Positions 1,147 through 64,000 of a DNA stretch of 64,000 nt are shown in pieces. This DNA is from Ophelia neglecta (lineage: Eukaryota). The stretch covers positions 71,796,001 through 71,860,000 of the forward strand of contig OZ260665.1 of NCBI GenBank assembly GCA_965285935.1. The letters are read 5' to 3'. Each line of letters starts with the position of its first letter. Positions within the stretch are counted from its first letter, which is position 1. The notes beneath the pieces were generated by a model that saw only the letters and a list, made by a program, of their open reading frames with translations, made no database searches and was not told the DNA's origin. The translations under genes were made by a program, and so were the position numbers.

Positions 1147-3586
1147 TTGAAATATAACAATCTTCACCGTGTGGGTGATAATTCTATGGGAGAAGGGCTT
1201 GGCCTGATCGACGAGTTCTCACGGTTTCGCTTAACTGAGTGGCTCACGGTTTCGCTTAACTGAGTGGCTAATTCATGCAGCAAACCGAAAAAGTAAAGGC
1301 TGGATGGCACACCCCCATTCAGAGTGGGGTTAGTGCCTCCCCCGCGTCGGGCGTATTGTGGTGATAGGATTCTGTTTAGGCGGGAGAATAAGCAACGGAG
1401 GGGGGGGGGGGCTACAAGGAAAGCTGGCGGCTATTTTTTCTCGGACCTGCCATAGTTTACAAAAATACATAAAATGCCTAAGCGACCAACTTTTGTTTTC
1501 TCTCCAAACCTTCTTTCCCCGAAAATCTTCCATCCCCTCCACCGCCCCCCCCCCCCCCCCCCGCCCGCCACACCACCCAGTTTGGTAACGGTGCGTCCCG
1601 AAGGCCTAACCCTCCCGGTATCCCGAACCGAACACATTCATAACCACGCGCCCCTGTTTGCGTAAACATTTCCTTTCCCAAATGCTGTATGTCACGCACT
1701 TTATAGGGGCGGGAGGTCGTGTTCGACATTTTACCAGGCGGACTGTGCATGGGTATGAAACAGTATTAGGCCTACTGTCATACCAATTGTAACTTAATAC
1801 ACCGCATGAAATACAATATGCACCGCCTTTATCTGGAGGGCGTGCTGTTGTTGCGACAGCACTCTTCACTATATTTGGAACTTGATTTTGAAGAAGGGAC
1901 AGGCGCCACCCCAAACTGAGGGGAAAAGTACACCGTCAGACATGGACCGTAAGTCCATGTAATGCATGAAAACACGGAAAAGTGTTGGGTAGTAATTTAC
2001 TACCGACACTACCTTCACTATGGACTCACTATAGGTATACAGGGCTCTGGATGGACTTGGTTGTACGTGTGACGAAGGGCAGAACAAATTAACGTACACA
2101 CGTGAAGTTATATATATATAAATTTGTATTTATATAGATTCATCCAAGCATTGTTTTTAGTATGAACATGAAACAACAAATTTACCTGTACAAGTGTCGT
2201 CGTAAGATGCTCCAGCTAGAAGCAAATGTGGCCTGTGTATTCTAATCCTTCGTGACGGTACAACTAGGCCTACTATAACCTGTGAACTTGGACTTTCACA
2301 CAATAATTATTCTATATTCAAAATGACTTAAGGAGTGTTCATTATTGAATGGTCAGGGGGGCCGGGCAGTTGGGAGAGGGGTGGTCACAATTTGCTTGCC
2401 CTGCTTGATGCGAATCTATGGATTCTCTATATATATGACACGGCTCACGGAAGCGACCGGCTTTAACGGGCCCACCAACAACGGGAAAATTCTTTCACGG
2501 CTAATACAGATTGTGAACTTGCTGTCTTGACAGGCCAATGACAGATTGCTGCATTGTTACTGCATGCAGGCAGATCTGCATTCATTCTTTTTCAACGGGG
2601 ATTCCAGGTGAATTTCTTCACCCAGTGCGCTCTGCCCATTGCGCATGTGCTCCATTTTCACCGGTCGACGTAATCGCTTTAAGTGTTTGTGGACATCCAG
2701 CACGTGGACAACCTTCAGAACTGGACCTTTTATAATATGCTGGTAAAGTCGCTATGCCAACAACATTACCTGCAGCATATACAGCTCACTGGTTATCGCC
2801 CATCGTGTCTACTGAACATAGTTTCTAATCAGTTTAGTTTGGTTATATGTCACTAGACTTTACCTCAGGACTACCGAACATAATGCCTATTTAGTTTAGT
2901 TTATTTACGTGTACACTAGACTTTATTTGGTTTCCTCCGTGTTTACTGTAAATATCATTTTGTTGTTTTGATACAGCTTTCTTATTTTTTGTGTCTTAGT
3001 GGAAATTTGAGTGCAGATCAGAGTTTTGTCAATTTATTCCTTTCACCAATTAATGCCAGATTGTCACACTTTCAATTTGATATGGCATGTGTAACTTGAT
3101 ATTCACAACCCCAAAGTGCATGATAAGGCTATTGTACATTGGCAGTTACGTGTAGTATGTTAAGATACAGGTCTGTTTTGCTGAACTTGCAAAACAATTG
3201 CCCGCAAAACAACTTTGCTTAATTTATGTGACATTTCCATGACACATTTCTTGAGTTATATTTTTATGATGTTATGTGTTGTAGTTGACATTAATATGCT
3301 TTAATTGTCGATGTTTGTTAACATTCGCCTGCAAAATTTTGCTAAATTTGTGTGACAATTGGTTTGTAACATTGTTTAAGTTTGATGTTATAGTTGCATG
3401 TGTTGTGCTTAAGATCAATATGCCCTTTGAAATGTTTTTATTGGAATTTTGTTGATACTATGTGTGATGACCAATGTATGCTTAAAACCCTCTGAGGACC
3501 CGTCCCCGACTGACCCCCGAATCAGCCCAGTATGAAAAATTAGAGCAACAATTTAAGGATTTGTCCAATTCTTTCAAATGGTATAA

Positions 3587-3970
3587 GGGAGCGTTCATTA
3601 TTTATGGCCGGGGGGGGGGGGGTGGTAAATTTGGGGGGGGACAGTTTTTTTTCAACCCATTTCCATGGGGGGGACAGTTTTTTTTCAACCCATTTCCATG
3701 GGGGGGACAGTTTTTTTTAGTCTATTCACAGGGTGCGCAATTTTATTTAGAAATATATATTGTACAAAAGTGTGTAGTGAAACTGATAAAACTTAGCCAA
3801 ATTCTGTCTTTGATGGGGGGGGGGGGGCAATTTTTTTCCACCTATTTCTGAGGGGGGGGCAATTTTTTTCCCACCTATTTCCAGGGGGGGGGGCAATTTT
3901 TTTTTGACGTACTCATTTCAAAAATTTACCACCCCCCCCCCCCCCCCGGCCATAAATAATGAACGCTCCC
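3587..3970. mobile_element. PIF/Harbinger-type (Tourist-like) MITE
   Basis: TIR GGGAGCGTTCATTATTTATGGCC(G)nTGGTAAATTT mirrored at the right end; TAA target duplication at 3584-3586 and 3971-3973; internal tandem subrepeats. Confidence 0.85.
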
Positions 3971-4059
3971 TAAGGAAACTATAGTCTTCTTGTCCTCAGG
4001 TTGGTTTAGGTGCTTTCACAAAGGGGAAGCCTACCACAGTTTCCAAACCCCAGGTATTC

Positions 4060-31446: not shown

Positions 31447-33268
31447 CTGTAATAAAAACCAACTCTATTTACAAATATCTAAGAACAGAATGAACTGAAC
31501 TGCATAAAAAACTACTGCCAAATACTGTTTTTGGCTTTGTTAAGACTCTGTTTGATCATCCAGATGCCCATCCTAGATGGTGATCACTCATGGGGGATTG
31601 TCCTTAAGTCCCTAACCACATTCTAGTTTCCTGGCTTCACCTGCCACCTGAATTGTCCAACCCTGCTGGTTAAGCAAATTAGTTACAGGTAATTACTCAA
31701 AAAGTGTTCCGCAACTTGTCTAAAAAATGCTATTTTAGAACACACTGGTATTCACCTGAAAAGTGAAGAAAAAACAAAAAAGGAATTGCCTTTTACTTTT
31801 CCAATTCAATGTCAAATTTGATGACCCAACTGGCACCGCAGAGTATGGCTACCTATAAGCTGGCAATACATTTTGAGAGCCTGTTAAAAATACATTTGAG
31901 AAACTGTTAATACAGCTAATACAGTAACACAATACCATTGTTTTGTTTTTGATCATATTGCAAAAAAGTATTATTGGATTTCCACCAAAAGTTTATTATT
32001 TGATGCCAAGGCAAGAACGCTTGAGTCTCCGAGCTGTGTTACGTTCAGTGCAACTGTGTTCCCAAGTTGACATCCTCACATATGACCAACTGAAGGAGTA
32101 CAAGAGAGAGGATCTTGATCATTATCTAAAAAAGAATCCCAGGCCTTTTTCTGTAGGCTTACAATGATTCATTTGCACCTGCGTCCATTGACACGTAAAA
32201 ATTTAAAAGAACTCATATTTACATGTTAGTGTGCATCCTTAGGACACACTAGCATAGAATCTTGAAACATGGTCACTGTCTCAAAAATGCCAGTGTTAAA
32301 TCTGGTGAAATTATGAAGAATAATATATGTGCATAAACAACTTGGTGAGTATGCTTTGTTTTCATCTGTGTGGGCAGTCGTTGTGCATGCACTATGCTTA
32401 TTTTGATTGATGAGCCAGCAGACTTTATAGCCAATGCAGCACACTGTACTAGCTTCTAGATTAGACACGCGTGGTTTGTGCTAATCTGCACCTGGCAGTG
32501 TTTGTCGTGAAAGCTCTCAGCAGTTCCTGAGCAAACACTACCAAAATGCCGCTACAAATAAAAAGTTTTACAGGACCCGCCAGCAGCCATTCGCATGAGG
32601 TTCAACTGATACTTCACCGCAAAATACTCGTACTGAACCACACAGCTAGATGCGCCATGCCAGGAGAAGGTGGCAGACTGACTGAAACAAACTATTTTAG
32701 TAGTAGTAATAATAAACAATTATAAGTATCTATAAATTTTGCATTTACATATCAACGTTTATTTCATTTTCAAAATGCTGCAAGGCACAAAATTTTTTCA
32801 CAATTTTTGTAGCCAGTGAGTCCCAGGACTTGCCTTATTGAATTTGAAAACAAATCACCGGCTAAGCCTTTGCTTGGCCATAAAACCATTTCAAACAGTC
32901 ACAGCAGTGTAGACAGCATGGGCTGGACCTTTTCCATGTCCCAAATTTCCTTTATCCAAAAGAAGTTGGGATGCAATAGAATGGGATCTAAGGCGTATGA
33001 CTAGTTTGGAGATTTATCAATATTTTGTTTTGACCTCAGTGACCTTCAAATTACTTCAAGGCTACTGATTATTTATCTCAACTGAGCTTCAGCCAAGGGA
33101 AATGTTTAGAATGTTGAAGTGCCTAGAAGCATTTGTTCAAAATCAATTTAATTTTGATCATCTTGCTCAAATTTTTTTCACAAGTGACATTAAAATGGAG
33201 GTGTCACACATTTTGGACCTACATGTATAATGCCCATGTATACATTCGCACAGGTTCCTTCCAGTTAC

Positions 33269-33864
33269 AACCCCCTGCGGGTTCGGGGAAAGAATAGACC
33301 CGACGTACCTCTGCGTGTCGTAAAAGGCGACTAAAAGGGGCATCCTGTTTGCCTTGGGATGTGACCTGTGACGGGTGAAGGACGGGATCCTGGTGGTTGA
33401 GCCAAACTGATTACTACGGTTTTTAGTGGCAACACACCACTTCGGCCCTTACTTCCCCCTAGACAGGAGGCCGTGTTCAGCCTGACATGGTCAACCGGCT
33501 TGTCTGTTATAGACAAGGACATACGGCTAGTCTGGACCAGTTACTAACCTAGTTGGTGCTGGTCTGGATGAACATGCATGTGCAGCACTGGCGTCTGTCT
33601 GCGATGGAGTAATCCCCAGACGATGTCCCCTCGTTGGGCTCAAAGTAAGGGCTTTACTAACACATTTTAGTCAGAAAAACATCTGACCCACCCACCTAGA
33701 AGATTTTTTATAAAATAGAGCTCAATAACCGCCTACTTCTTACTATTATCCCCATGTAAATAAAAATAGACAGTACAATAAACGATTAACTATACCCAAC
33801 TTAAGACACTAAATGACCCACATGGTGTCTATGTGTCGTTAAGCCCCAAAAATCCAAATCCAAA
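33269..33864 (+). mobile_element. Non-autonomous retroposon (RTE-derived SINE-like) with structured 5' end
   Basis: 13-bp TSD with one mismatch (TCCTTCCAGTTAC 33256-33268 / TCCTTCCATTTAC 33865-33877); (AAATCC)n 3' tail after GTGTCGTTAAGCCCC; no ORF. Confidence 0.75.
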
Positions 33865-34214
33865 TCCTTCCATTTACGCACCAAAACATACTCTCAACAG
33901 CATTGGCTAGTAAATAAATACTAACCACTACCATTTAAACTGAATATTTACTTAATGGAAATGTTGCTAAACAGTAACAGTTCCTTCCCATTTGGTTTCA
34001 GATTTGAAAAATGAACCAGACTGATTGTATTTCATCTAATATGGCCCATGTAAAATAAATGGGTAATCAGTATATTTCACAAAATGGGATCACACAAATT
34101 ATAGGAAATAACACATTCTAGTCTTTGAAGAAATTAATGAAATAAAACTTTGTTTTCAAGGTCATAAGGTAGGGTATCCACTTTAAAATATGGTTTAAGA
34201 AAGACGCCCTGTAC

Positions 34215-34438: not shown

Positions 34439-34528
34439 CTGAACAGTGAGGAAGCCTTAGTAATGGTCTTGAACATTACTCTTTCTTGGGTGGTACCATG
34501 CAGCATCTTGCTAAAGGGCAGAACGTTA

Positions 34529-34936
34529 GGGGCGCACCATTAGATATTTGGGGGGGGGGGGGCGACAAAATATTTTCTAGTGAAACAAAAAAATTTCTAG
34601 CTTTGGACAAACAAACAATTTATTTTTTCCTATCTGGGAAGCAAACAATTTTTTTTTCTAACAAATCTCTGTCAAATATTTTTTCCCTAGCCTTGATCAA
34701 ACTTGTATACCCTATGTGTTAAGTCATTATTTGGCCGTGAGGCCAACCTTTTTTTAGAATCCATCGAAGAATGGATCAGTGCTTATGCAAACAATTTTTT
34801 TTAAAGAAAATATCAGACAAACAATTTATTTTTTCCAGAGTCAGAAACAAACAATTTTTTTTATGCATAACCAGAAACAAACAATTTTTTTTTTTTAATT
34901 TGTCGCCCCCCCCCCAAATATTGAATGGTCCGTCCC
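34529..34936. mobile_element. PIF/Harbinger-type MITE
   Basis: Imperfect TIR GGGGCGCACCATTAGATATTT(G)nCGACAAA / TTTGTCG(C)nAAATATTGAATGGTCCGTCCC; TTA TSD; internal AAACAAACAATTT subrepeats. Confidence 0.8.
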
Positions 34937-35729
34937 TTAGTACTTTATGCCCAAAATAGGGAGTGCACCCCCCCCTCCAACCCCTGGATCTGTGGCCAAC
35001 CCCTGGATCTGTGGCCCTTGGAGTGAAATGGCCCTATATACAGCTGCCACATAGCTCAAGGTAATGGAAGTGCCTCCATGGAAGTCCATGCACTCCCAGC
35101 CTACAAAATGTAGTAGATCTAAAACTTGGAAGCCATTTTAAAAATGCAAAGGTTATTTATTGAGCCACTAACTTTTTATCTTTGTTTACTAATACTTTTT
35201 AGTCAGGAAAGCATCTTAATCATCCACCTAGAAGACTTTTATAAAATAGAGTTCAATAATTGTTTATTTCTCACCATTATCCCCGTGTAAATAAAAAAAG
35301 ACAGTACAATAACTGAATTATATGAACTATACCCAACTTAAGACAAGAAATGGCTCACATGGTGCTTATGTATTGTGACACTTTTGACATTTGGGATTTT
35401 GTCTATATGCACTTGTTATATGTATGTTTAAACTTTAGAGCTTGTTATCTGTGGTATTGGAATTTATTGAGTATGACGCAGCTATTTATCAGTGTATTTA
35501 TCTGCAGGGACTTACCATGTTGGTGCTTAAATTGATTAATTCACATGTCTTATTATGCGCTCCAGTGTAAATACATTTTATATGTTGTAAAAATGGAGAT
35601 CAGACGACCTCGTCCTCCATCTTGGTTACCGGGCTCAGTGAGAGCTCAGGTTTATTATTCGATTAATGATTAACAGTAGTATTTCTGTACTCATGTTTAC
35701 CAGTAATACTTCACTAGCTGCCTCTGTAT

Positions 35730-41148: not shown

Positions 41149-41372
41149 TAGCACCAACAGTAGACTGCCTTGATAGCACCAACAGTAGACTGCCTTGATA
41201 GCACCAACAGTAGACTGCCTTGATAGCACCAACAGTAGACTGCCTTGATAGCACCAACAGTAGACTGCCTTGATAGCACCAACAGTAGACTGCCTTGATA
41301 GCACCAACAGTAGACTGCCTTGATAGCACCAACAGTAGACTGCCTTGATAGCACCAACAGTAGACTGCCTTG
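41149..41372. repeat. 25-bp perfect minisatellite (TAGCACCAACAGTAGACTGCCTTGA)n
   Basis: About 9 identical copies, no spacers. Confidence 0.97.
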
Positions 41373-41460
41373 GGTTTTTTTCTTCCCCCCCCCCCCCCTC
41401 TCTCTCCGATTCGCAGGTGCGCAAGGCGCTTGTCCGCTACTACCTATACTTTAACTGCTG

Positions 41461-41849: not shown

Positions 41850-43330
41850 ATAGAATTTGACTTTGACATGGTAAGAAAGGAATCGGCGTTGCACGAGCAC
41901 TGTGTTAGCAACTTTCTTGATTGATTTTCGGCCACTAGCAGAACAACTCTTCTTCGGCGAAACACCAACCGCAGCTTTCACAGCTTTCGGGCAATCCCGG
42001 CCAGCTTCGTGCCGCTTCGCTCAACAGGACTTTTCGACCAGCTGTGGGCTGGGAACCAGCGAAAAGTTGCTTCATCACTGGGCTACTTCCTCTACTGCGC
42101 ATGCTCGGATTTTCCATTCCCTTCCACCGTAAACAATACAGGATATTTTGGCGATAAACTCTCTTCAGTAAACACCGACATATCACAATTTAAGCTCTCT
42201 GCGGCAAATGGACTTGCAATCCCGTGTGTCGGTATAGTTACATTGGATTTGCAAGTGGGTGACGCCATCTTTCCTGGTCAAGTTTTCTTGGTAGAGGATG
42301 ACACTGAGACCCAGAATGATGGGCCTGGTGTAACTATTGGCTGTAACTTATTCAGACAGATGGCAACTCAGCTGTTAGATCTTAGCAATATACCCCCTGC
42401 ATGGCAAACTTTTGTTTCTTTATTTGTCCCATCTTCCTCTCCTACCAAATCCAGTCTGGTTAGAGTTGGGGCTGAACCTGAATTTATCCCGGCCAATTCA
42501 ATGAGAGTTGTTTTCGGCCGCACTAGGTCTCTCCCTAAAGGAAAAAGAGTCGAGGGATTGGTTCAAGCTTCAAACGGCAATAACGGATGTTTACCCCGTA
42601 ACATAATGGTAGTTGATACTCTTACTAATGTTCAGAACCAAAATGCTGCAGTTAGAGTGGTTAATATTAGCAATCAAGATATTTGGCTTTAACTGCAATA
42701 GAGATGTTTTTGCTCAAGAAGGGGAACAACTTACAAAAACTGACCAAGTCACCCATAGAATTCATCTCAACGATGACAAACCTATAAAATTACCACATAG
42801 GAGAGTTCCTCATCTCATTCCCGAGGTTAAGGAACACCTTGACAATTTGTTGAAGGCTGATATAATCAGGCCTAGCTCAAGTCCCTATGCGGCTCCTGTA
42901 GTTTTGGCACGCAAAAAGGACCAGAGTTAACGCCTCTGCGTTGACTATACAGATTACTCAATGCAAAGACCATCAAAGACGCATTTCCTCTACCTAGCAT
43001 TGATGAAGTTTTAGACACACTTAAGGGGTCAAAATTCCTCTCTACTTTGGACTTGAGCCAGGGCTATCACCAAGTTCCTATGGAAGAGAGTGATATACAT
43101 AAAACTGCTTTTAGAGTAGGAACTGGAAATCTTTATGAGTATCTCCGTATGCCTTTTGGATTGGCAAATAGCCCTGCCACTGATGGAAACATGCTTTCAC
43201 GATCAGAACTTCACAATTCTCATATTCTTTCTCGATGATATTTTGGTGTATTCGAAGGACTTTGACTCTCAAATGCAGACTTCAACAAGTAGTTAGCCTT
43301 CTAAGAAAAAAACAAACTGAAATTCAACCT
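41850..43330 (+). mobile_element. Truncated Ty3/Gypsy internal region (protease, RT)
   Basis: LSAANGLAIPCVG...QVFLV...TIGCNL (retropepsin C-half); IIRPSSSPYAAPVVLARKKD, LDLSQGYHQVPM, KTAFRVGTGNLYEYLRMPFGLANSPAT, FLDDILVYS; frameshifted, ends after RT core. Confidence 0.92.
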
Positions 43331-43960
43331 CTTATTAGGTGGGTCATAAAATATGCCATCTCCTTTGGAGAGGGGGGGGGGGGGGGAGAGGATAATACAC
43401 ACTATACTGGGAGGGGGGGGGGGGCACATTATAGGGGGTCGAGAAACGCCAGAATAGAAATATTTTCGCGCGAATTATATTTGTATAAAGATAATGTTGG
43501 AAATTTGTTCATAAATGGTAAATTTTGTGGAAAATGCTGATTTTGCGGAATTTGTTTGTTTTGTACATCAATAATGACCGCCCTCTTTCACCGCATTGGC
43601 GCTGGCGTTGTTCTCCATATCACATGCCGGGGAAGTCAGTTCAAGTTGAGAATCACTTAAATGTGTTGAAAAAAGATTTGGATGTGCTGGTGCTGGGACT
43701 GATGGTACTTTAGTCCAAGTTAATGTGATCGGGCTATATATTTTAATGTGATCGGGCTCATGGGCTATGTACCGCCTATAGCGTACATTTCTCAACCAAT
43801 TTCTATAATACTTAGCCTTAAATTATGATACACCCTAATGCTGGGAGGATTCGATTAGATTTTAGATGACTTGACCCACACTAAACCTACGCGTGTGTGA
43901 CCTAAATAGTCCTAGTATTTTTCAATATACATATATGATATCTTTTCAGTGGCTACCACC

Positions 43961-45016
43961 ATGGCGATGAACAACGACACATTCACTGGGTTAGAAGTGG
44001 TGGGTTCTAGCAGCTTATGGCTGGATATCGTACCAAAAACAGCAATTAGCTTTGTCGTCTTGGCTACTCTGGTTATCATAGCATTGCTCGTCTCTAAAAG
44101 TTTGGAGACCATGACCGAAAAAAGAGAAGACTCGGACAGCGACATGAGCGAATTCACTCGGAACCTGCTCCGTGTCAAAATTAAACTAATTTTCGGCGCT
44201 CGTCTTTTCGGTTTTGGCGTTCAGAAAGGGAAGAAGCGAAAATTGACCAAGGACGAAAAGAAAGCTATCGCCATAAAGTTAGCCAGACAATGGCGAGACT
44301 ACGTGAGAAAAGTTAACAAAGAGAGAAATAATTCAACGGAAAGGGGAATAACAGGGTCGCCATGTTCACGGAGTAAAATCAGCGGAAAGGAGGGTGAAAG
44401 GACGAGGCCATTAGTCAGCGATACTCAAACCCCAAACAGTGCTGGCAAACAGCAGACAGTGAGTACCACGGTGGTGCAGATTGAGAGCCCGAACAAGACT
44501 GGAAGTAATAAGGCGAATGCCCCGCGAGCTACCGGACGTACGACAGGTGGTTTGCAACGAAGCACACTGACACGTGAGCATACTCACGACGGTGACTTCG
44601 TCGCCATCGAGCTCACAGCTCCAGATACACTACTGACTTCTGGCATTAAAACTCAGCCAGGAACCACGCCGCCCACGTCTTCCCGTGTCCAGATGAAAGC
44701 GGACAAAGCAGGCGATAAGGACAAAATCAGCATTCATTCCGATTTCTCATCAATCGTTTCGTTCGACAAGGATTCTTCCGAGAGTGAGGCGTCAAAAGGC
44801 AACCCGGACACGATATGTAACGTCAGATTAGATGACAAGGAATCTTTTACTTTAAGCACGGCAACGAACAAAAAGTCTGAAGAATCCGCAGAAATAATGC
44901 AAAAGTACGTGAGACCTGTGACTGCGTCGGCAAGTCGTCCTATCACGGCAGGGGGACGACAGCCCGTCAACAAAGGAGGCCGAAAATGTCCTCCCGCCTT
45001 GATGGTCTCATCGTAG
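43961..45016 (+). CDS. Uncharacterised 351-aa single-pass membrane protein with long disordered tail
   Basis: 1056-bp ORF in AT-rich background; acceptor CTTTTCAG just upstream, strong Kozak ACCACCATGG; N-terminal NDT sequon, hydrophobic TAISFVVLATLVIIALLVS, basic helix, S/T/K-rich tail. Confidence 0.8.
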   Translation: MAMNNDTFTGLEVVGSSSLWLDIVPKTAISFVVLATLVIIALLVSKSLETMTEKREDSDSDMSEFTRNLLRVKIKLIFGARLFGFGVQKGKKRKLTKDEKKAIAIKLARQWRDYVRKVNKERNNSTERGITGSPCSRSKISGKEGERTRPLVSDTQTPNSAGKQQTVSTTVVQIESPNKTGSNKANAPRATGRTTGGLQRSTLTREHTHDGDFVAIELTAPDTLLTSGIKTQPGTTPPTSSRVQMKADKAGDKDKISIHSDFSSIVSFDKDSSESEASKGNPDTICNVRLDDKESFTLSTATNKKSEESAEIMQKYVRPVTASASRPITAGGRQPVNKGGRKCPPALMVSS

Positions 45017-47709: not shown

Positions 47710-50338
47710 AATATTATATGCTGCTTTTTATTATTACCAAATCGCTCAGAGCGTTTGAAATGATGAAAGTTACCCTCCCCCCCCCCCCCTCCCCCGCCGT
47801 CTTTTCTACTAATGCCATTGTAAAGACGGTATAAAAGGCCATTGTACCATCTGTACTATTGAAAGCACGGACGAAAAATGGCGCGCACACATATCAATCA
47901 TTCATGGCCGATACTTCGGTACAGAACATTTGCAGTCCCCGGCAAACAAATTCACTGTTCAGAGCCTCGCATTGCGCGTGCGCCATGTGCGGTGTCTTTA
48001 CTCAATGTGCAGGCGAGATGCCGTCAACGGGCGCAGTGGCAGACAAGATGTAGATGGGCGAGCATTCAGTTTTTCTGCTATCGAAGGTCTATGTTTGAGC
48101 CCTATGGTATAGACATGTCGTTGAGAGGTCACGCAGCCTGCCTGACTGGAGCACTCGAACGCTTCCTTACATTGCCAGGGGAAGGAGGAGTTCTTCGTTT
48201 ACTTGGCTACGTCACTGTAGGTAGGACTATGTAGGAGTCTTTGTAGCTCTTTGTTATTGTCTGTACATCATATAGCCTCAAATGTCAACAAACTGGCCCC
48301 GGATAAAGACAGCATGTGTCAAGGGGCTCGGTCACCATGGCTGAACCATGGTGACAGCTTTGTCCATTCAGCAGGAGATTGAGTTTTAGCACACCGTAGG
48401 AGATGGAATGAATTAAAGCCAGAGATTGCCGGCCAGGTACGTTGCGTATTCTGTGATCAGGCGGTGATAAGGCAGAGTTGGCGGCGAGCCTCAGTCGCCG
48501 ATGGTCTGCAGAACTCGATCGATTTGAGCAAGGAACCGTCGGGACCAAAGTCAACTGTGCAGTGGGAGAGGTCTGGCAGGCTACGTCATTTGGAAGGTCA
48601 AAACGTCATTACACAGGTGCCCGTGGCATTTTCGGGTACATATTGTTTGATATATTGGACGCTGCATATTAAAGCTTATACGTTAGCCACAGCACCTTAT
48701 AACATTGTTAGTAATCGTAACATTAAATGCCAGATCTTTTTCTGAAGCAGTGTCTGTGTATGATTTACCTTACTGTACTTTTCGGCTCAGAGATGTTTTC
48801 CGTCATTTCGCATCCGTTTTACACACACTTCTGTAATAATCTTCTCATAGCCAACTGCCACTACTGACGCCTGATGTATTGCAAATGTATTGGCAGGATT
48901 GCAAGAACACATGCATTGCGGAGCAACTAACTACTATAACCCCGCCATAGTACAAGGTATACGTAACACGGCAATAGCTGAAATAGCTGGCACTGGAAAG
49001 GTAAAACGACAAACCTGGGTCTGTTATTAAGATTCTATATGGCAGTGTACCACAGCCATAGTGCTCAATGTTGAAGCAATATTAGCTACCATTACATAAA
49101 GCTCATACGAAGCTCCCGAGCAGCTCTAGCTGTGGTAATAACAAAATACTGAAAATAGTATCCAACGATGTGCATGTCATGACAATATCACCACATATAA
49201 AGATTACTAAATCATTGACGGACATTGGTACAAATGAGCAAAGGGATTAGTAATGTTTTGCCGGGCAGAAAGGCTGCCAGAATTGGAAGAGCTATAGACA
49301 CGATTATTCCTCTCTTGGCGCACTGAGCTTTTCATTTACATGCTATTAAAGATATGCGTGCAGATGCAACATTTGATCCCTGCTGAAGCAAACAATTACC
49401 TATTGGAAGCGGTCCTAATAAACTCGAAGGCAATTGCTTATGCATGATGCATCTGTTTAGTTGTGTGCGTCTGTTACTAAAGGGACGGATCCTAACTAAC
49501 GATGGTGCGGGGTTGGTGTAGGGGACGGGGTTGGAGGGAGGGGAGGGGGGGGGGGGGGGGCTCCAGACAAGTTGCTATGAGTATAATAATGCGAATTCAA
49601 AAGCTCCTTTAATTGTTATATTAAAGTTCACTCTCGCATCGCGGGCTTTCAATCGAGAGCAAGCTTAAGTCTTATATATATAAAAGGCAATACAAGTCTC
49701 AAACTGATACACAGTGCATATCCGCGGTCGTTGGACTTAGTAACTGGCGCGCGGGTTAATTAGAACCTGGCTAACACGATCATTTTGGTGGGTGACATTA
49801 GCGAGTTTTAGGCCGTTTTTCTAGATTTCAAAGTGCATACTGAGACTCAGGCTAAGGAACCGTATCAGCCCTATAGAACGATGATCTAATGACACGAATC
49901 TTTTAATAATTCATTTTGCCCTTTTTGGTTTCTGCACATGGGCTGCAATAGTGTTACTTAAAAGCGTGATGAGAGTATTAAATTTATAAAGCATATAGCT
50001 CAAGATTATAGCAAATCACGACTAAGTGGACTTGAAAGATCGACATTCACTCGGTTTGTATATCTTTCGGATAAATATGTTTTCAGTACTATTTTAGAAT
50101 AAGGTAACATAAATGTATTATTTAAATGTACTACAAAATTAGTCATATATACGTAAAAATATAGACGTTTAAATTAAATTTGGACATAAAATATAAAGAA
50201 TTCGGCAAAAACCTAGCAAATATAATGAAAACTCAAGGGGCCCGACCTCAAAGGTATAAGCCCAATCAGAATTGTGTTTAAAAAACATTAGATAGGACTT
50301 CTGTAATCATCTTCTCGTGGTACAGTATATGTCATGTT

Positions 50339-50718
50339 AGAACCAGTGTCAGTGTGCCTGCCTCCTCCAAGTGGGTCAGAACCAGTGTCAGTGTGCCTGC
50401 CTCCTCTAAGTGGGTCAGAACCAGTGTCAGTGTGCCTGCCTCCTCCAAGTGGTGTCAGTGTGGCTGCCTCCTCCAAGTGGGTCAGAACCAGTGTCAGTGT
50501 GCCTACCTCCTCCAAGTGGGTCAGAACCAGTGTCAGTGTGCCTACCTCCTCCAAGTGGGTCAGAACCAGTGTCAGTGTGCTTACCTCCTCCAAGTGGGTC
50601 AGAACCAGTGTCAGTGTGCCTGCCTCCTCCAAGTGGGTCAGAACCAGTGTCAGTGTGCCTACCTCCTCCAATTGGGTCAGAACCAGTGTCAGTGTGCCTA
50701 CCTCCTCCTAATGGGTCA
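50339..50718. repeat. 39-bp minisatellite (AGAACCAGTGTCAGTGTGCCTRCCTCCTCCAAGTGGGTC)n
   Basis: About 10 copies, one carrying an 11-bp deletion near 50452. Confidence 0.95.
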
Positions 50719-52211
50719 CTACCGTTGAGGGTGTTTGCTATGGGCCTTCAGTATATGATGTTAGATTCAAATTCAAAGAGGCTATAATTTAAATGAATTT
50801 TATTCACATGCGGATTATTTTCTAAGATTATTGCAACAACAACTCAGCCTTATCTCATATATACACTGTTTATATTTACTTAAATATTATAAAGCAAAAC
50901 CACCGATAGAAATTGCGAATCGCGATTTATATTCTTTTTCATTGATTTTTCCCGCTGAGTACATTCCTTTACTCCAGTACGTCATTTTTTCGACCATAGT
51001 TCACACCCTTGTCCACCCATCCACCTAGCCAATTTTAAAAATAACCCCAGAATGTTTTACAAAGATTTATTTCAATCCATCGTGCGAATAGTGGACTACC
51101 CGAAGACAGGGTTTGTTTTATATAAACTGTAATGCTTCGGTATCATTCCAGCCTGCCCTTTGAGAACCAGACAGTATTAGAAACTCGTTTACCCTTTAAA
51201 TTGGCCAGTACTAACAGTTAGTACAGTACTATCACTTTGTGGTGTTCTGTGGTTGCTGAGGTTTACCTGGCGGCGGCCGGATAGGCGCAGGCGTGACATG
51301 GATTGTTAGGAGTAACCTATAAATTGCTGCCTCAACAGCCAGCCGGACATAACACCGTGCGATAAATGAGTGCTGTCTACATGACGTCAGAGACTCCATC
51401 TACTACATGTGTAGCCATCGTTTAACTAATACAAGGAGTTACATTCTGTAGGAAAATTTCACTGTGTTCCTGTGAGAGATCTTCTGAGGAGTATTTATCA
51501 GCAGTAGGGCTCTTTATTGTATCCGGCTGGCTGTATACAAGGAAATTACAAGACTTAGTGCGCCGTGTGTTCCGACAGACCACAAAAAAGAATGGATGGA
51601 GAGGAGGATGTTTTAAATATCAAGGCGAGATCAAGGATTGTGTCCCGGCAAGGCATGTCGTAGGGGGTGGGGGCTTCGGAGGGAAAGTGGGGTTGGGTTG
51701 GGAATGGGGGGGGGGGGGTAGAGACGCATTTAGTTAGGTATCATTATAGGTAAAGTCCCCCCGTAGCTTAAATCAATAAGTTCTCATATCTACAGAATGT
51801 AAACATTTCAGCAATGCCGCGACAAAAGACACTGTGACTCGCTTCCCAGCTCTGCACTTTGAATCCGATATCATCGCGAAACTGTTTCCTATTGTGGCAT
51901 TCTGGCTCAATGAGTGCTTTGGCAATGGTCTGAATTCCAATGCGATCTTTCCTTCTGGTGATAAACCGACAGAGCCGAGCAGTACAAAACACGGGGCACT
52001 CTGTCATTGTAACTAATGATAGCAGCTTCCTAGAAAGCAACACCAATACCTCTCCTCGCGTTAGCAAATCCCTTATTTATTGATTTTTGTGTGGTGCATG
52101 AATATTTCATAGGCATTCTACCACAATTTGTATAAGGCCTGTGATTTCTTTCTCTTTAGGTAATTCATCACACTGAAGGAAACTAGCCTGGTAGAAGCAA
52201 TCTGATTAAAA

Positions 52212-53711
52212 ATGATCCCACACGAGCGCTCTCGAAGACGCCGGAAGCTCTACAAGAGAAGTCAGACTCTAGCCACGTTACCCACCCACCTTATTCCAGA
52301 GGTTGACAATGAACACGAGGATGAAGACTCGGCGACCGAACAATCTCGGTTAATTAAGTCGCCTGGCTCCCCAACCCACTCATTAGAAAGTTCGTCGGAG
52401 GTGGACAAGTCGGATGAGGAGTTTCGGCCGGTAAGCCTTAAACTTCCTCAGCAATCTATGTCACGGGCCTCTAAGAAAAGTCCGAGTCATAGCTGTTCAA
52501 AACACACTCGTACCACAACCAGCTCCGATCTCCCACCGCTGCCTGTAATAAAAACACGCGGGCCTCACAAACCAGGAAGCCGACACCCTACTAAAAAACT
52601 ATTACGGACTCCAAGCACTCCTGCCATCCTGCTGAACAAGGTTAAGGACAGAATCCGGGAGAAAGTTATACAGACTTCGACCGAGTGGCCCACAGCAGCG
52701 GCCATCATGCACGAGAAAAGGCAGCGAGCGGTTGAGAGTTTTGAGGCTCAGCTAAGTAGGGGAGGGCGCCATTCGGCAGGCGACGTGGCCGGGCTTGAGG
52801 TCATACAGCTGCGAGACATGGGGTGCGGGATATCTGGAAAAAAGGAGCGAACTCGTGCTCGGACTGCTGAGGCAGCGCCAGCACCTTCATCCCCAATCCC
52901 CGAAACATTCCGCCCCGATATGGCCCGTCTCGCCTTTCGCCGAAGGTCAATCAGTGAAGATACGGGTATGCAAAACATCGGCAGGCTCTCGCCACGTGGC
53001 AGTATGGCCTCCTCGGACCTTCGGCCTATCTCCAAGTCTGGTATCATTTGCTCAAATGACGATCTCAAAGCTATTCTCACTGACCACAAAAGGCGACTGA
53101 GTCCGAATCCTAAGCACAGATCTCCTCACTTAAGTCCAGACGGCAGACCACGGGAAAGACTGTCACTACCCGATACAGAGTCGCTGCTCCGGAACAAGCT
53201 CCAGACTCAGGGCTCACTCGACTCCTCCTCCAGCTCGCATAGTTCCGCCTCGCCCAGCAGGCTGGAGGAGACCGATTGTGGTGCTAGTTATGTGAAGGCC
53301 GGGTCCTTTATCTCCTCCATGCCAACAGCCAGTTCTGAGTACCCAACTGTGGTCTTGGACAGCAGGTCAAAGGTTACCATTTTCCAGCCAATCATGGTGA
53401 CAACAGACGACGGAAGTGACCCATGTAAAGGTGGGCCGGTTCCCGATGTGGAATACGACGAGCATGGGCAGACTTGGGATGTATACGGGGCAGAATTTGA
53501 TCCAGAGTCGCTTGGACAAGCAATTCAAAAACATTTAGAGAAAATGATCGACCGTAAATCACAGGAAACAACTATTCTGGCTCAGCAATTGGAGCAACGT
53601 AAGTTGGAAGATGACAAGGACCGAAAGAGCGGTGACGGGACGCTCGGCGTCATACTACGTATGCTGTGTTACTTTGCCAGACGGCGGGAGGAACCACCCA
53701 TGTCGTCATAA
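52212..53711 (+). CDS. GPRIN: G protein-regulated inducer of neurite outgrowth family protein (GRIN C-terminal domain), 499 aa
   Basis: C-terminal PVPDVEYDEHGQTWDVYGAEFDPESLGQAIQKHLE matches GRIN_C signature V.WDE.GMTWEVYGA..D.E.LG.AIQ.HLE; single coding exon preceded by acceptor TTTCTTTCTCTTTAG; disordered S/P/R-rich body. Confidence 0.92.
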   Translation: MIPHERSRRRRKLYKRSQTLATLPTHLIPEVDNEHEDEDSATEQSRLIKSPGSPTHSLESSSEVDKSDEEFRPVSLKLPQQSMSRASKKSPSHSCSKHTRTTTSSDLPPLPVIKTRGPHKPGSRHPTKKLLRTPSTPAILLNKVKDRIREKVIQTSTEWPTAAAIMHEKRQRAVESFEAQLSRGGRHSAGDVAGLEVIQLRDMGCGISGKKERTRARTAEAAPAPSSPIPETFRPDMARLAFRRRSISEDTGMQNIGRLSPRGSMASSDLRPISKSGIICSNDDLKAILTDHKRRLSPNPKHRSPHLSPDGRPRERLSLPDTESLLRNKLQTQGSLDSSSSSHSSASPSRLEETDCGASYVKAGSFISSMPTASSEYPTVVLDSRSKVTIFQPIMVTTDDGSDPCKGGPVPDVEYDEHGQTWDVYGAEFDPESLGQAIQKHLEKMIDRKSQETTILAQQLEQRKLEDDKDRKSGDGTLGVILRMLCYFARRREEPPMSS

Positions 53712-56067: not shown

Positions 56068-57661
56068 CGGCCTGCAAGCCAGCCGGCAAGGCAGCTAGGC
56101 AGAAGTAGGAAGGGACATGGTTTGTCTCCATGTATTACATGGTGGACGGCCTGCAAGCCAGCCGGCAAGGCAGCTAGGCAGAAGTAGGAAGAGACATGGT
56201 TTGTCTCCATGTATTACATGGTGGACGGCCTGCAAGCCAGTCGGGCAAGGCAGCTAGGCAGAAATAGGAAGGGACATGGTTTGTCTCCATGTATTACATG
56301 GTGGACGGCCTGTCAGGCAGCCGGGCAAGGCAGCTAGTCAGAAGTAGGAAGGGACATGGTTTGTCTCCATGTATTACATGGTGGACGGCCTGCATGACAG
56401 TCGGGCAAGGCAGCTAGTCAGAAGTAGGGAGGGACATGGTTTGTCTCCATGTATTACATGGAGGGCGGCCTGTCAGGCAGCCGGGCAAGGCAGCTAGTCA
56501 GAAGTAGGGGGGGGGGCATGGTTTGTCTCCATGTATTACATGGAGGGCGGCCTGTCAGGCAGCCGGGCAAGGCAGCTAGTTAGAAGTAGGAAGGGACATG
56601 GTTTGTCTCCATGTATTACATGGTGGACGGCCTGCAAGCCAGTCGGGCAAGGCAGCTAGGCAGAAGTAGGAAGGGACATGGTTTGTCTCCATGTATTACA
56701 TGGAGGGCGGCCTATCAGGCAGCCGGGCAAGGCAGCTAGTCAGAAGAAGGGAGGGACATGGTTAGTCTCCATGTATAACATGGAGGGCGGCCTGTCAGGC
56801 AGCCGGGCAAGGCAGCTAGTCAGAAGTAGGAAGGGACATGGTTTGTATCCATGTATTACATAAAGGGCGGCCTGTCAGGCAGCCGGGCAAGGCAGCTAGT
56901 CAGAAGTAGGAAGGGACATGGTTAGTATCCATGTATTACATAAAGGGCGGCCAGTCAGGCAGCCGGGCAAGGCAGCTAGTCAGAAGTAGGAAGGGACATG
57001 GTTAGTCTCCATGTATAACATGGAGGGCGGCCTGTCAGGCAGCCGGGCAAGGCAGCTAGTTAGAAGTAGGAAGGGACATGGTTTGTCTCCATGTATTACA
57101 TGGAGGTCGGCCTGTCAGGCAGCCGGGCAAGGCAGCTAGTCAGAAGTAGGAAGGGACATGGTTAGTATCCATGTATTACATAAAGGGCGGCCTGTCAGGC
57201 AGCCGGGCAACGCAGCTAGTCAGAAGTAGGAAGGGACATGGTTAGTATCCATGTATTACATAAAGGGCGGCCTGTCAGGCAGCCGGGCAAGGCAGCTAGG
57301 CAGAAGTAGGAAGGGACATGGTTTGTCTCCATGTATTACATGGAGGGCGGCCTGTCAGGCAGCCGGGCAAGGCAGCTAGTCAGAAGTAGGAAGGGACATG
57401 GTTAGTCTCCATGAATTACATGGAGGGCGGCCTGTCAGGCAGCCGGGCAAGGCAGCTAGTCAGAAGTAGGAAGAGACATGGTTTGTCTCCATGTATTACA
57501 TGGTGGACGGCCTGCAAGACAGCCGGGCGAGACAGCTAGTCAGAAGTAGGAAGAGACATGGTTTGTCTCCATGTATTACATGGTGGACGGCCTGCAAGAC
57601 AGCCGGGCGAGACAGCTAGTCAGAAGTAGGAAGAGACATGGTTTTTCTCCATGTATTACAT
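56068..57661. repeat. 80-bp tandem array, 20 units, with internal palindromes
   Basis: Unit CGGCCTGTCAGGCAGCCGGGCAAGGCAGCTAGTCAGAAGTAGGAAGGGACATGGTTTGTCTCCATGTATTACATGGAGGG; period 79-82 bp. Confidence 0.97.
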
Positions 57662-60621
57662 TGTGTGTCCCGTTTTTCGGGGAAGACCCGGACAAGCCCT
57701 AATTTTAGGACGTCGCCGTGGTCCCATACTTATGAAAATATTAGCTACGATACAATGCGGTTTGCTCCCTAGAATGAATTACCCAGTTTTTCAGGTTTCA
57801 GAATAGGAAACTCTTCGAAAAAAAGCTGTTTACACTAAAAATTGTTGATTAATTGATATATAAATAAGTAGGGCTAAATACCCATGTTATTTATCACTAT
57901 GAAGTACCTTTAAACCCATAGAACACACAAGTTTACAAACATGTATCTTCGTGTCTTATTCCTCCCCAAAAATATTTGATTGAAATTGTTCTTTAACTTC
58001 GTTTATTTGATTCTAAAGATGTCCAAATGGAGAAAACTTTTCTACATAAAAATAGTCATGCCAATGCAATGTTCTGCTACGTCCCGTTAAACTTGGATCT
58101 AGGTTAGATAGTTTTATGTGTGTATTCGAATTTATTTCAGTGAACAAACGTTTCAGTGAAATTATGTGAAGACCCATCCATAAACGGACTTATGTGGCAC
58201 AAAGAACTATCAACACAGCACGTACCACACACACCGCTCATGCACCACAAATAGGTATATATGCTAATCATATATTATAGCTCCATATATTCCCTCGCAT
58301 GATAATTATATATTCCCTCGCATGATTCACAATTTCGGAGAAAAGAAAATATATTTCGTTGGTTGGTACAGAACCCCCCCCCCCTCACCCCAAAGGATAT
58401 ATATAAAGAACAATCCAAATTATAAGGCAAGTTAATTCTTTTTTCTAGAAACATCATAACTGAACAAACTCAAAATGAAACTTTATCCATTTGTACCCGC
58501 AAAAGCAGGAAGGAACCCGACCACAGCCTTAGGGTGAACAGTGACGTCTTTAATCCACACTGGATAATTTATTGAGACTATATGACGCTTGGCTTTAGGT
58601 TACTTGATATCGTGCCCTATGATGGGTGCTGGGATTCGTTTCCCAGCTTGTTTTGTCTTGTGGTTTGCTTCCCAAACTCATCAAAGCATCCCGGTTTACA
58701 CTCAGAAAAGATCTCGGTTAGCCCAAGTTTGCTGTTTGACTCAGATGGCTTGTCTTCCGATAGAGGCGCTTGAGTGTTGAATGTGACCTACGCTTTTCCG
58801 AGAACGGCTCAGGGCGCCATATGTAGTGGCGATTGGAAACGATTGGATACAACGATGGGGTAAAAAGTTAGCCAAGAGCTCCACTCGTTGCTTTGTTTCA
58901 TACTTCTCTCCCCCACACTCCCCGTTGCTGGAATGTTTATTAGTGGGAGTACTTTTTCTGGACGTCTAAACGGACATTGAAAATTTGGAGTCAAGTAGTA
59001 GGTATTTGACTAAGAAATAAGAAAATATATCAAACGTTAATAATGAATTGAGTAGGTATGTTAATAAAGAAAGCACTTACACAGACCACATTTTCAGTAA
59101 AAGACGATGTTTGCCGTGGAACCTGACTAAATGATTTTTGCTCTTTTAGAAGCATGTATTGTGATCAAATTTTCTCTGCTCTCGTGAATATCACGAGCGC
59201 CAGCCATGCTTACTTAGATCATTTTCAAATGTCGCCGGTATATCTGTTAATCAACGGTCTTATTCACTGTGTTCTAGAAGAATCGCGTGACTCCTCATGC
59301 ACATCGAATCCACCGTATTGACGGTATTGTTTACTGCAGCAATGGCTACTCATCTACGATGACGGTGCTAGTTCCTGCCTTTACAATACCGGCACAAGCG
59401 TTTGACGTTTGCAGGATTCAGGATTAATTGTGCTGAATTAGAGTCTCCCATTAAACAACCGGAATCTATATGATAATCTACCGTTGGTCAGATGTATTAA
59501 GAAAAGCACAGCATGCAAGTCACGGTTGATTCACTGCATTAATATTGACACACATTGCAGGCTATTACCTACAGGTTATGACACACGAGTCCCTTTGTAA
59601 ACGTGTTATTATTATGTCTTACAAGTCGTATCACAGTTGTGCATGTACATTTATATGCCTAGTTTTTTGTCATGTCTGTGATACTTCTGGATTTTAACCA
59701 CGTGATTATTGGAGGTGCGATGACGTTCACGCATCACTTAATGACTGGGGGCATGATGCCTATCACATCACGTGATGACTGGAAGTGCGATGACGTTCTC
59801 AATGAACGTGAATACTGGAGTTATAATCAGTTATCACAGATGGTAAACAAGTGTCAGCGATAGATGGCTTTTCATAAGAAACAGGACAAGTCAACAGCCG
59901 GGTTTTAAGGGTTCGCTCTACGGCAAGGTTTATTTAGAAGGAATGAAATTTTTTTCACTGGAATCCGAAGTTATTTCTGTAGGCATTTTATTTTGACCAG
60001 TTTATATACATGTTAGGGTAATATCAGGTAGACCTGTCCTGTACATTCTAAGCTTAGATTTTTATTTATCATACATGCTAATACAGTTCGAGCACAAAGT
60101 ATAATATAACTGAAGCAAGTCAAATTTTAACAAACATCTTTTTGTCTGCAAACTGTATACTAAAATACATATCAATTGCCGACTTTTATATAGCCAGCAC
60201 GTACATGTATACATCTGTCCAAACAGTAGCCCGAATGTTTATAATGTCATCTCTGTTAATATTCTTACAAGTAAAGCATGGTAGTCATGAACCTAGCTGA
60301 TGTTTTGTTTTTTCTATGAAACAAAGAACCATTGTATCAGTTTAAATAAAAAATATTCCCCATTTATTTAAGTAAATAACATAATTACTGAGCGATAATT
60401 ATTTATTACGTGTGTGTGTGGGAGGGGGGGGAGCTAAGAAAACAATGGGTGGGGGTCTAAGGATCGGAGGATGGGACGGGGGGTCTAAGGATCGGAAGCG
60501 TAGGGAGATATAGGAGGAGCCTACCTGTGTGATAGTCCTAATTTATATGGAGGCCTATAACGCGCCATAACCTTTTTTTCGGATTTTGGTTAAATTTACT
60601 AAGGGCTTCTCGCTAGTAACA

Positions 60622-61548: not shown

Positions 61549-62614
61549 ATTCATTATATCACCTACATACCTTTATTCCCTGAATGTTTGTACACTAAAA
61601 TGTGTATACTAGCCTCCATGCCAGACTTAAAGCGGCGAGATCGCTGCAGAGGTAGTTGACATTGCCAGCAGGTTGGGATTGATGATTTGGAGGACCAGAA
61701 CTACTTTGCTTTCAGATTACGGAATTATCACTACGCACACCAAACCTCCTTTTGTGGAAGTGACGTGCACATGCTTGATGCGCATTTGGGCATTGGCAGG
61801 GTTTGAAAGCTGATTAGAATCGTTGCTTTCAGCAGTGCAAGTAAAGATCCGGTGATATTTCCAAATCGCTTAAATGGGCGGGAGTTTATAAGTTATACTA
61901 GACATGACTGAGCTAGTATGATCTCACTGTCAGACAATGTTTGGTTTTAAATCACAGGCAATGTATCAACAAAGACACTGCATTGGCAATGATGAGGTTT
62001 TTATATCTATCAGATAATTCTATCAGTATTATCATGGCTACATACTCAGTGACACACACTATTTATCAACCTTGTGAAGGTAATTGCTCGCTTTATTCTT
62101 CACTGTAAACCCCAATCAAGTTGACATTTCTTGAATCCTGAGCACAAATTGTTGGACGCCAGCTTGTAAGTTTTATTAAATGAAAAAAAAAGGGTTTACG
62201 TAAAATTGGTTACAGAAGTCTGGTCAACTTGATCAAGTTTACTTGAATCAAAATCGGAAATTAGCTGATCTCAAATCATGTTGACATAACTTGCAATTCT
62301 GAGCGTAATTTGTTGCACGCAAATTTGTAAGTTTTATTGAAATGAGATTAGTTGACTCAACTGCGGGGCTGCAGTTTATGCGGGGCATTAAATGTGAGAC
62401 GGCTCCCGGGATGTCGGGGGTTCCCCCTTATGACCAGGCGGCTTCGGGGAACCATGCGGCCAGGCGTGTCGCTTCCTCATTGGTGGGGTGGTGTGGTCAG
62501 ACCTGGTCTCGCCTGAGTGGCTTGGCTTGCGGGCCTCTCCTTAGGCCGGGCGGCCTCGCCAGACCTTGCACTGACAGCGAACGACGTAGACGACGATCTG
62601 GTTAGGCATACATC

Positions 62615-63745
62615 ATGGCACCAACGGCAGCTTCGACTTCTAAAAACAAACAGAAGAAAGCCAAAAGCTGCAGGAATTGTGGGAAACGCCATGAACCGCC
62701 AACGGGGAAACACTGTCCAGAATACCTAGCGGAGCTGGAGGCAGAGGACCAGCAGACTTGCACTGGGACCGCATCAGGGAAACACGCCGAGTCGGCCATA
62801 CGCGAGGCGGCAGACAGCCAGGCAAGTGACTGGAGTGCCCTTATCGCCTCCCTATCCCAATTTCAGGCTAATACCACCACCGCCTTAGAAGATATGGGCA
62901 GGCGTATTGACTCTTTAGTGGGTAATAAGAAATGTGGGGAGGGAGAACCAGGCTCGGGGTCTGAATGCAGTAACTTTCCAGAAATTATCGATGCGGGCCA
63001 TGATGGGCTGATATCCGTGGACCGTCTCAGGCGAGACAAGACCGGCAGGGCCAGGGCGGAGAGGCGCCTCAGAGAACTTGGCGAAGATTGGGATACCGAG
63101 GAACCGGCCGCCAAGCCGAAGTCCAGAAAAAGTGGGTATGCCATTAGTGCCGTGGACAATGTCGTAAGCCCTCAGGCCTACTGGCCACACTTATTCGTCA
63201 ACAGACTCTCTGAGACGCCGGCGGCATACGATAACCTCTAAGTGTTTGAGTTTATGTATGGTTACTTTCGCATTCTCGAAAGAGAATGCAGTTCTTTGAC
63301 TGATTTCAGAACGCACATCAGCTATCTCAGCGAATTTAATGGAGGACGGGGCGGAGGTTGACTGGGCGGCCGTGCGCACGTCTCATCGCCACGTCATGCA
63401 GCTGTGCGAGCAGGGTCATCTTGAATGGGACGACCAGAACAGGGTGCAGGACGCAAGAGCGACGGCGTTGCGCCGGGCGCTCCGAAGACCCCTCCCCGGG
63501 CCTCAGAGGTATGTAAAATCAGGGCTAAATGGGAGGTTCTCCCAGGAGAAACCTAAACCATGTCAGGCTTACAACAAAGGGAATTGTCCGTATGATAATG
63601 ACCATGATGCTAACACAACATATGTAGCTCACATTTGCAGTTTCTGCCACGCCAGCGGCCGACGAAGCCCGCATCTAGAGGCATTGTCGTCGGAGGGGCG
63701 GTGCCGGCCGTACCTTGTTCTCGAGTGGGCCAAAAAACGAGGGGA
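62615..63745 (+). mobile_element. DIRS/Ngaro-type (tyrosine-recombinase retrotransposon) ORF1/gag-like, disrupted
   Basis: N-terminal CRNCGKRHEPPTGKHC; core YWPHLFV...YDNL*VFEFMYGY...LMEDGAEVDWAAVRTSHRHVMQLCEQGHLEW; C-terminal CQAYNKGNCPYDNDH...HICSFC...H; stop at 63239-63241 and a frameshift near 63335; RT and YR not in window. Confidence 0.75.
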
Positions 63746-64000
63746 CGGGAGCCCCTGGCAGCGGTCGGACAGCTTAGGGCTCCCGCAGACAAAATCGACA
63801 AGAAACCAGGTAGATAGCATTTTGTCACTCCGCTCTCCAAAAGCAGTCAGTGCACAGTGCACTACCCGACGAGGGTAATTCAAGTTACCCTCGTCGGGAA
63901 AATGGCGGCCCGGGAAGACCCAAGGTTCGAATTTTACTCTTTTCAGCGCGAAAAAACGATCTCTTTTCTAATAACAACTTCACGCTGATACATAATAGTA

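Follow-up and report, generated by a model that had tools for sequence, protein, structure and literature searches.

The stretch analysed here, called the window throughout, is 64,000 nucleotides (nt) of the genome of Ophelia neglecta (NCBI GenBank assembly GCA_965285935.1, contig OZ260665.1, positions 71,796,001–71,860,000 of the forward strand). It contains a short retroposon copy that lies between direct repeats and begins with a ~70-nt segment, hereafter the head, which is the subject of this report. The copy is derived from a long interspersed nuclear element (LINE), and its parts are as follows (TSD, target-site duplication; UTR, untranslated region; ORF, open reading frame).

33256–33268, + strand: left TSD, 13 bp, with one mismatch against 33865–33877
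33269–33864, + strand: retroposon copy between the direct repeats, ending in AAATCC repeats
33269–33651, + strand: first 383 nt of the parent LINE, comprising its 5′ UTR and stopping just short of ORF1 (94–97 per cent identity at 28 of 29 other loci, where ORF1 comes next)
33652–33864, + strand: 3′ end of the parent LINE with its AAATCC-repeat tail, joined after an internal deletion of ~5.1 kb
33865–33877, + strand: right TSD, the counterpart of 33256–33268

The window copy and its parent LINE

In the window copy, the first 383 nt of the parent LINE are fused to its last ~215 nt. This junction has a single occurrence in the genome, and the window copy is therefore one internally deleted insertion rather than a family; as a locus it is an unremarkable deleted copy of a LINE. 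When the genome was searched with the copy's first 132 nt, 40 of 266 candidates scored at 93–100 per cent identity. At 28 of the 29 other loci that were fetched, the match ends at nt 383–384 and an ORF continues beyond it. Nine of ten longer loci hold an element of 5.6–5.7 kb, and the tenth holds one of 3.5 kb. All ten fetched LINE copies have TSDs of 11–17 bp, and five have an intact ORF2 of 1237 amino acids (aa) with AP endonuclease (APE), reverse transcriptase (RT) and RNase H domains (RNase_H E-value 6e-12), ORF1 being separate. The parent is thus a young, ~5.7-kb LINE of the I group (APE-RT-RNase H), and the head that it has in common with a Nimb element makes membership in the Nimb clade likely. 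The original prediction had placed the copy in the context of the RTE clade. RTE elements lack an RNase H domain and typically have a single long ORF; we reject RTE membership because the parent LINE has both an RNase H domain and a separate ORF1.

Pattern counts across the genome gave 199 matches to the LINE head (8 for the control) and 2882 to the tail. Such an excess of tails is expected if the family is mostly 5′-truncated, and other repeats may share the tail. Eight LINE copies on several contigs (L361, L380, L384, L391, L403, L429, L430 and L434) have one common upstream flank, which points either to a preferred target inside another repeat or to the duplication of one insertion. At L364, L383, L394, L395, L424 and L431, a LINE copy begins immediately after another one's 3′ end, tail matches are densely clustered near the start of contig C1 (350000–433000), and a decayed piece resembling the LINE 3′ UTR (compare 33705–33835) was recognized by eye at 35220–35375 of the window. 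Two subfamilies, represented by L031 and L356, are 98.9 per cent identical in the head, 95–99 per cent in ORF2 and 69–87 per cent in the remaining 5′ UTR and in ORF1, a pattern that suggests exchange or fast evolution of ORF1. Because the identity of the head is above that of the UTR and ORF1 but not above that of ORF2, we regard it as weak evidence.

Fold and covariation of the head

The head is predicted to form an H-type pseudoknot (a first stem of 3–5 bp, one U, a second stem of 7 bp and an AGAAUA linker), followed by a stem that encloses a conserved hairpin. In the window, the elements of the fold are arranged as follows.

33269–33271, + strand: AA and the fifth C, a spacer between the TSD and stem 1 (0–2 bases long in 41 of 43 copies with a resolved TSD)
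33272–33288, + strand: pseudoknot stem 1 (33272–75 with 33285–88), the single U at 33276 and the 5′ strand of stem 2 (33277–83), drawn from covariation
33289–33296, + strand: loop 3, which ends in the conserved AGAAUA (33291–96) and whose 5′ part takes long inserts
33297–33303, + strand: 3′ strand of stem 2, drawn from covariation
33308–33340, + strand: outer stem P3 (33308–12 with 33336–40), which covaries and encloses an internal loop and hairpin P4
within 33308–33340, + strand: hairpin P4 (33317–20 with 33328–31), with a 7-nt loop UAARAGG and then UAA; P4 was the search pattern

All pairing strands named in the original prediction lie where it had put them, and its pseudoknot and outer stem were confirmed, whereas its register for stem 1 (33271–74) is probably off by one base. 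The C run consists of five Cs (33271–75), and because homologs keep one unpaired U between stems 1 and 2, pairing of CCCC 33272–75 with GGGG 33285–88 is favoured. Stem 2 has 7 bp in most homologs and 6 bp plus a G.A end in the window (33277–83 with 33297–303). The unpaired AGAAUA, the 7-nt loop and the UAA are near-invariant. The R position of the UAARAGG loop, at which the search pattern was free, holds a purine in 120 of 123 matches, which would presumably fit the T-loop pattern. In two repeat families, inserts of ~60 and ~140 nt lie in loop 3 with both flanks kept. An alternative second pseudoknot between the region of ACG 33303–05 and CGU 33314–16 was dropped, as the pairing is lost in homologs. 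A scan of Rfam gave no match to the window at E-values up to 10 and none at the motif in 11 homolog loci, in agreement with the expectation that the head belongs to no described family.

Covariation, proposed earlier as a check, is found in both stem 2 and P3. With the geometry fixed (stem 1, one base, a 7-bp stem 2, AGAAUW and the partner strand), 47 of 49 stem-2 positions are paired in the window and six viral sequences (described below), each of which has its own stem sequence; only the true assignment of partner strands, one among 5040 permutations, gives this result. None of 18 chance matches to the pattern attains 6 of 7 stem-2 pairs under the same geometry. In a broader set of 26 family representatives, chosen by hand and reduced to 25 by leaving out one without the anchor, 145 of 175 stem-2 positions pair, compared to a mean of 104.7 when partners are swapped (0 of 100000 permutations), and 18 of the 25 representatives attain at least 6 of 7 pairs. 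Positions 2–7 of stem 2 show the compensatory pair types C-G, U-A, A-U and G-C. The outer stem CCUCU/AGGGG (P3) also covaries (2 of 100000 permutations overall; P-value = 0.0003 for hosts and 0.03 for viruses), and the differences between two tandem copies in L071 are compensatory. These permutation tests take no account of phylogeny and are distinct from R-scape. The inner hairpin GUCG/CGAC never varied among homologs; because P4 served as the query pattern, its invariance is no evidence for pairing.

Carriers of the head and its 5′ boundary

Homologs were sought with a 19-nt pattern of the hairpin. The pattern occurs in at least 122 metagenome stretches, nearly all of which are animal repeat families with the full head, so that the GTCGTAA-type motif ascribed to other invertebrate repeats in the original prediction is real and widespread. 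The head is retained at the start of non-coding repeats that resemble short interspersed nuclear elements (SINEs). One repeat has two tandem heads (L113:1369–1515), and in the family of L146 and L163 the head is followed, as judged by eye, by a tRNA-like A-box stretch.

In the window, the fold lies at the exact 5′ end of a TSD-flanked retroposon, as had been predicted: the 13-bp TSD is followed by AA and then by the C run. Among 90 genomic copies examined, the TSD is resolvable in 43 (three of which have one common flank) and not in 31, whereas in 16 the head is altered or cut short. The TSD and the C run are 0–2 bases apart in 41 of the 43. A G adjoins stem 1 at 2 of the 43 junctions; where there are two or more extra bases, G comes first in 7 of 22; a cap-type G is absent in this genome. 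Because the extra 5′ bases do not track the tree of 33 full-length copies, they give no clue to the donor flanks. The conserved sequence begins with stem 1 or one base ahead of it, both in this genome and in four families of metagenome repeats, for which 72 of the at least 122 instances were parsed. In this genome, stem 1 is preceded mostly by U or A; in the metagenome families, the preceding base is mostly G in three (7/8, 9/13 and 7/13) and A in the fourth (20/29), and in some families it lengthens stem 1. Insertion ends, as DNA ends, thus map to the base of the first stem.

The hairpin pattern also occurs in nine viral stretches. Seven of these (six distinct) add AGAAUA and the upstream pseudoknot, neither of which was in the query; the other two, identical in context, have neither. 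Five distinct carriers are contigs of RNA-virus type, in which the fold is in sense orientation, 25–119 nt past the last stop codon and with 27–119 nt left to the end of the contig. The final ORFs of these contigs have matches to RdRP_3, to RdRP_4, to a noda-like capsid (on a contig with RdRP_3) and to a Peptidase_A21 capsid, and one has no Pfam match. One of the viral contigs has a tandem pair of folds. The sixth carrier is a 212-kb DNA virus contig, whose fold is intergenic and lies 168 nt ahead of a 958-aa frame. Under a covariance model built from 12 non-viral sequences, the six viral folds score 31–68 bits and a hairpin-only match scores 26; because the query shared the hairpin, 26 bits is the baseline for these scores. 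Four looser scans of viral sequences, in one of which 117 matches were scored by script and 28 loci by the covariance model, gave no new convincing carrier among the matches listed, and a blastn search of a phage collection gave no match to the head. Seven matches with the motif were found in GTDB (L623–L629). They lie at the ends of chimeric contigs, in a 5′ UTR of LINE type or in stretches that are low in GC or have a microsatellite tail. From this context we read them as probable contamination with animal repeats rather than as bacterial occurrences of the head. In two of the seven GTDB contigs, apparent animal retroposon sequence is joined to bacterial genes at contig ends.

Taken together, the covariation, the tolerated inserts and the presence in contigs that encode RNA-dependent RNA polymerase (RdRP) indicate that selection acts on the RNA, and we conclude from these sequence comparisons that the head is a real, conserved RNA structure. 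The sequence, by contrast, has a published history. Matetovici et al. (2016) described a ~70-nt head on Nimb-17_LMi, I-3_DR, RTE-9_CPB and the mollusc LP and MESC SINEs, and named it LP, for LINE promoter, a function stated by the authors to be untested (PMC4758252). By sequence, the head in the window is a member of the LP family: the published scallop copies, compared by eye, contain the run of Cs, AAGAA and the GGCGACTAA block, and the reported homology is confined to the first 70 nt (PMC4758252). The description of the head as uncharacterized in the original prediction therefore stands for its fold and function but not for its sequence.

The LP proposal itself offers an explanation in which the head is an internal RNA polymerase II promoter that acts solely as DNA and its pairings are incidental. 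The position at +1, the purine before stem 1 in four other families and the substitution of LP for a tRNA head in an oyster SINE (PMC4758252) are all consistent with it. Compensatory changes in the stems and long inserts inside the motif are not, and because a DNA promoter would serve no purpose in the genome of an RNA virus, the copies in RdRP-encoding contigs disfavour promoter activity as the sole function. We therefore consider a promoter without a role for the RNA very improbable, although some promoter activity may coexist with such a role.

Possible functions and comparison with known systems

Both the first base of a retroposon and the start of a viral 3′ UTR would call for fixing the 5′ end of an RNA. 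In plant-virus exonuclease-resistant RNAs (xrRNAs), Xrn1 is halted at the base of P1, the sites lie in 3′ UTRs or intergenic regions, and a T-loop provides an anchor (PMC12397905; PMC6299227); the halting point and the sites match the positions of the head in retroposons and viruses. We hypothesize that the head is a putative new RNA fold that blocks 5′-to-3′ exonucleases such as Xrn1, a reading to which we assign an even chance. The pseudoknot would be braced by the docking of either the UAARAGG loop or the CUAA internal loop, and a nuclease arriving from upstream would run into stem 1 and halt at its base. In a retroposon, read-through or decapped transcripts would thereby be trimmed to a stable, unit-length 5′ end and then copied by reverse transcriptase, whereas in viruses a protected 3′ fragment would be left over. 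A stable 5′ fold is reported to raise the use of R2 templates without a need for catalysis (PMC11331408). The wider proposition is that the head represents a new class of exonuclease-resistant (or self-cleaving) RNA by which animal LINEs and SINEs generate their 5′ end themselves, with no reliance on promoter or cap. The module would also have passed between retroposons, RNA viruses unrelated to one another and a large DNA virus; in this proposition as a whole our confidence falls slightly short of even.

Several observations weigh against an exonuclease block or the structure that it would require. Under the strict geometry, 7 of the 25 representatives stay below 6 of 7 stem-2 pairs, P3 has no more than 2 bp in three of the six viruses, and chance matches to looser patterns attain 6 of 7 pairs in ~10–20 per cent of cases. 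In a host-only alignment of 12 sequences, covariation was no better than in shuffles (69 of 500). The folding energy is not beyond chance (z = −1.05; equalled by 27 of 200 shuffles), as computed by a program without pseudoknot modelling. The purine before stem 1 may also fit a purine transcription start or a cap, and the fold differs from xrRNA classes 1–3. Xrn1 is reported not to be stalled by ordinary frameshift pseudoknots of the H type, whether or not a second hairpin is present (PMC10321173), so the downstream module would have to contribute through a tertiary contact. Finally, self-cleaving ribozymes have been reported, mostly at the 5′ end, from UTRs of RNA viruses with linear genomes, among them toti- and tombus-like ones (PMC13725137).

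This last report makes a catalytic role possible: the head could belong to a new self-cleaving ribozyme class and, by cutting at stem 1 or immediately before it, release the RNA of the element from read-through transcripts. The sharp 5′ boundary of the elements and the near-invariant unpaired bases would accord with catalysis, and 5′ ribozymes are reported in six LINE clades (PMC5786205). Yet no base is conserved at the putative cut (A, G or U, depending on the family), the length of stem 1 varies from 3 to 5 bp, cleavage in the viruses would strip the last ~100–190 nt of the genome, and no Rfam ribozyme matches. We consider a ribozyme unlikely.

Alternatively, the head could be a platform that binds either a host factor or the ribosome (as a cap-independent translation enhancer or an element for stability or export), or else the polymerase; retroposons would keep it where their RNA begins, and viruses in the 3′ UTR. 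Its strongly conserved loops would suit such binding, as would its location ahead of ORF1 in the LINE and ahead of the 958-aa frame in the DNA virus, and tombus-like viruses keep translation enhancers in their 3′ UTRs (PMC6299227). Its retention on non-coding SINE-like repeats speaks against this reading, binding alone leaves the start of the elements at the base of stem 1 unaccounted for, and we find this possibility doubtful. Of the three functions put forward in the original prediction, the exonuclease block fits the viral evidence best and a ribozyme fares as judged above, whereas an internal ribosome entry site fits poorly, because the heads of non-coding SINEs and viral 3′ UTRs carry the fold.

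If the head does block exonucleases, it would account for a 70-nt sequence conserved in retroposons from molluscs and insects to fish and turtle, show how SINEs without a tRNA head gain a defined 5′ end, and provide a cellular-genome xrRNA with a defined job; it would be a candidate for a fourth xrRNA fold or, if catalytic, a new ribozyme. Such a module could also serve as a natural 5′ element for RNA-template stability in retrotransposon-based gene insertion. That retroposons and viruses have it in common suggests that RNA modules travel from one to the other.

Other features of the window include tandem arrays with an 80-bp unit (~20 copies, 56068–57772), a 39-bp unit (50307–50773) and a 25-bp unit (41149–41373). 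Segments 20636–22180 and 24949–26380 are repeats ~4.2–4.3 kb apart, with 94–97 per cent identity and internal 215-bp repeats. At 17430–17519, 3586–3971 and 34528–34940, there are a perfect palindrome with 45-bp arms and short elements that resemble miniature inverted-repeat transposable elements, with G/C-run terminal inverted repeats. Open frames of 190–500 codons lie on the + strand at 41925–42692, 43916–45016, 52206–53711 and 62606–63878.

Among known systems, the class 3 (plant-virus) xrRNAs and coremin resemble the head in being compact pseudoknots at 3′ UTR or intergenic sites. They stop the nuclease at the base of P1 and have a T-loop anchor or a required second hairpin, whereas the head has a plain H-type knot, an AGAAUA loop, a downstream P3/P4 module and a different sequence. 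Literature searches found no cellular retroposon carrier of a class 3 xrRNA or coremin. By fold, class 3, which is defined by a P1/P2 stem-loop with a J1/2 bulge and an L2B loop and by an apical loop paired to the 3′ end, was rejected because the head has a single short stem 1 and neither bulge nor L2B, and flavivirus classes 1 and 2 because it has no three-way junction with a double pseudoknot at the 5′ end and no Rfam match. Lying outside these classes and Rfam makes it less probable that the head is an xrRNA of a described class, not that it works like one. In functional terms, an xrRNA is an RNA that stops Xrn1 with no help from proteins and forms a ring around its 5′ end.

The HDV-like ribozymes of R2, RTE and L1Tc/ingi (Pr77) are likewise pseudoknotted modules that set the 5′ end of non-LTR (long terminal repeat) elements and are common to unrelated families. 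Their defining feature is a nested double pseudoknot (P1–P4) with a catalytic C in J4/2; a loose descriptor of it, run without a positive control, had no fits in the window or in 16 of 17 homolog regions, and as Rfam gave no match either, membership among the HDV-like ribozymes was rejected. The remaining ribozymes of Rfam, among them hammerhead, twister, pistol and hatchet, were rejected because no Rfam match was obtained and their core motifs are absent; the head had also been judged by eye to match neither HDV nor hammerhead, twister or pistol, and that judgement holds.

The s2m element is a stem-loop that is not known from retroposons, and an Rfam scan finds its sequence unrelated to the head. 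It resembles the head in being a short, conserved, structured RNA present across unrelated virus families (PMC5456283). The bipartite, non-autonomous LINE derivatives RIME, NARTc and Bov-A, like the window copy, join the 5′ and 3′ ends of a LINE by internal deletion (PMC5786205), whereas the window junction occurs once, as a single insertion. For the LP head, section 10 of the original description and its related passages give no RNA structure, covariation or viral occurrence (PMC4758252), and our literature search, outside of which subscription journals, Repbase Reports and bioRxiv supplements largely fell, found no earlier report of the structure of the head or of its viral copies. What the present analysis adds to the LP head is a covarying RNA structure and its copies in viruses.
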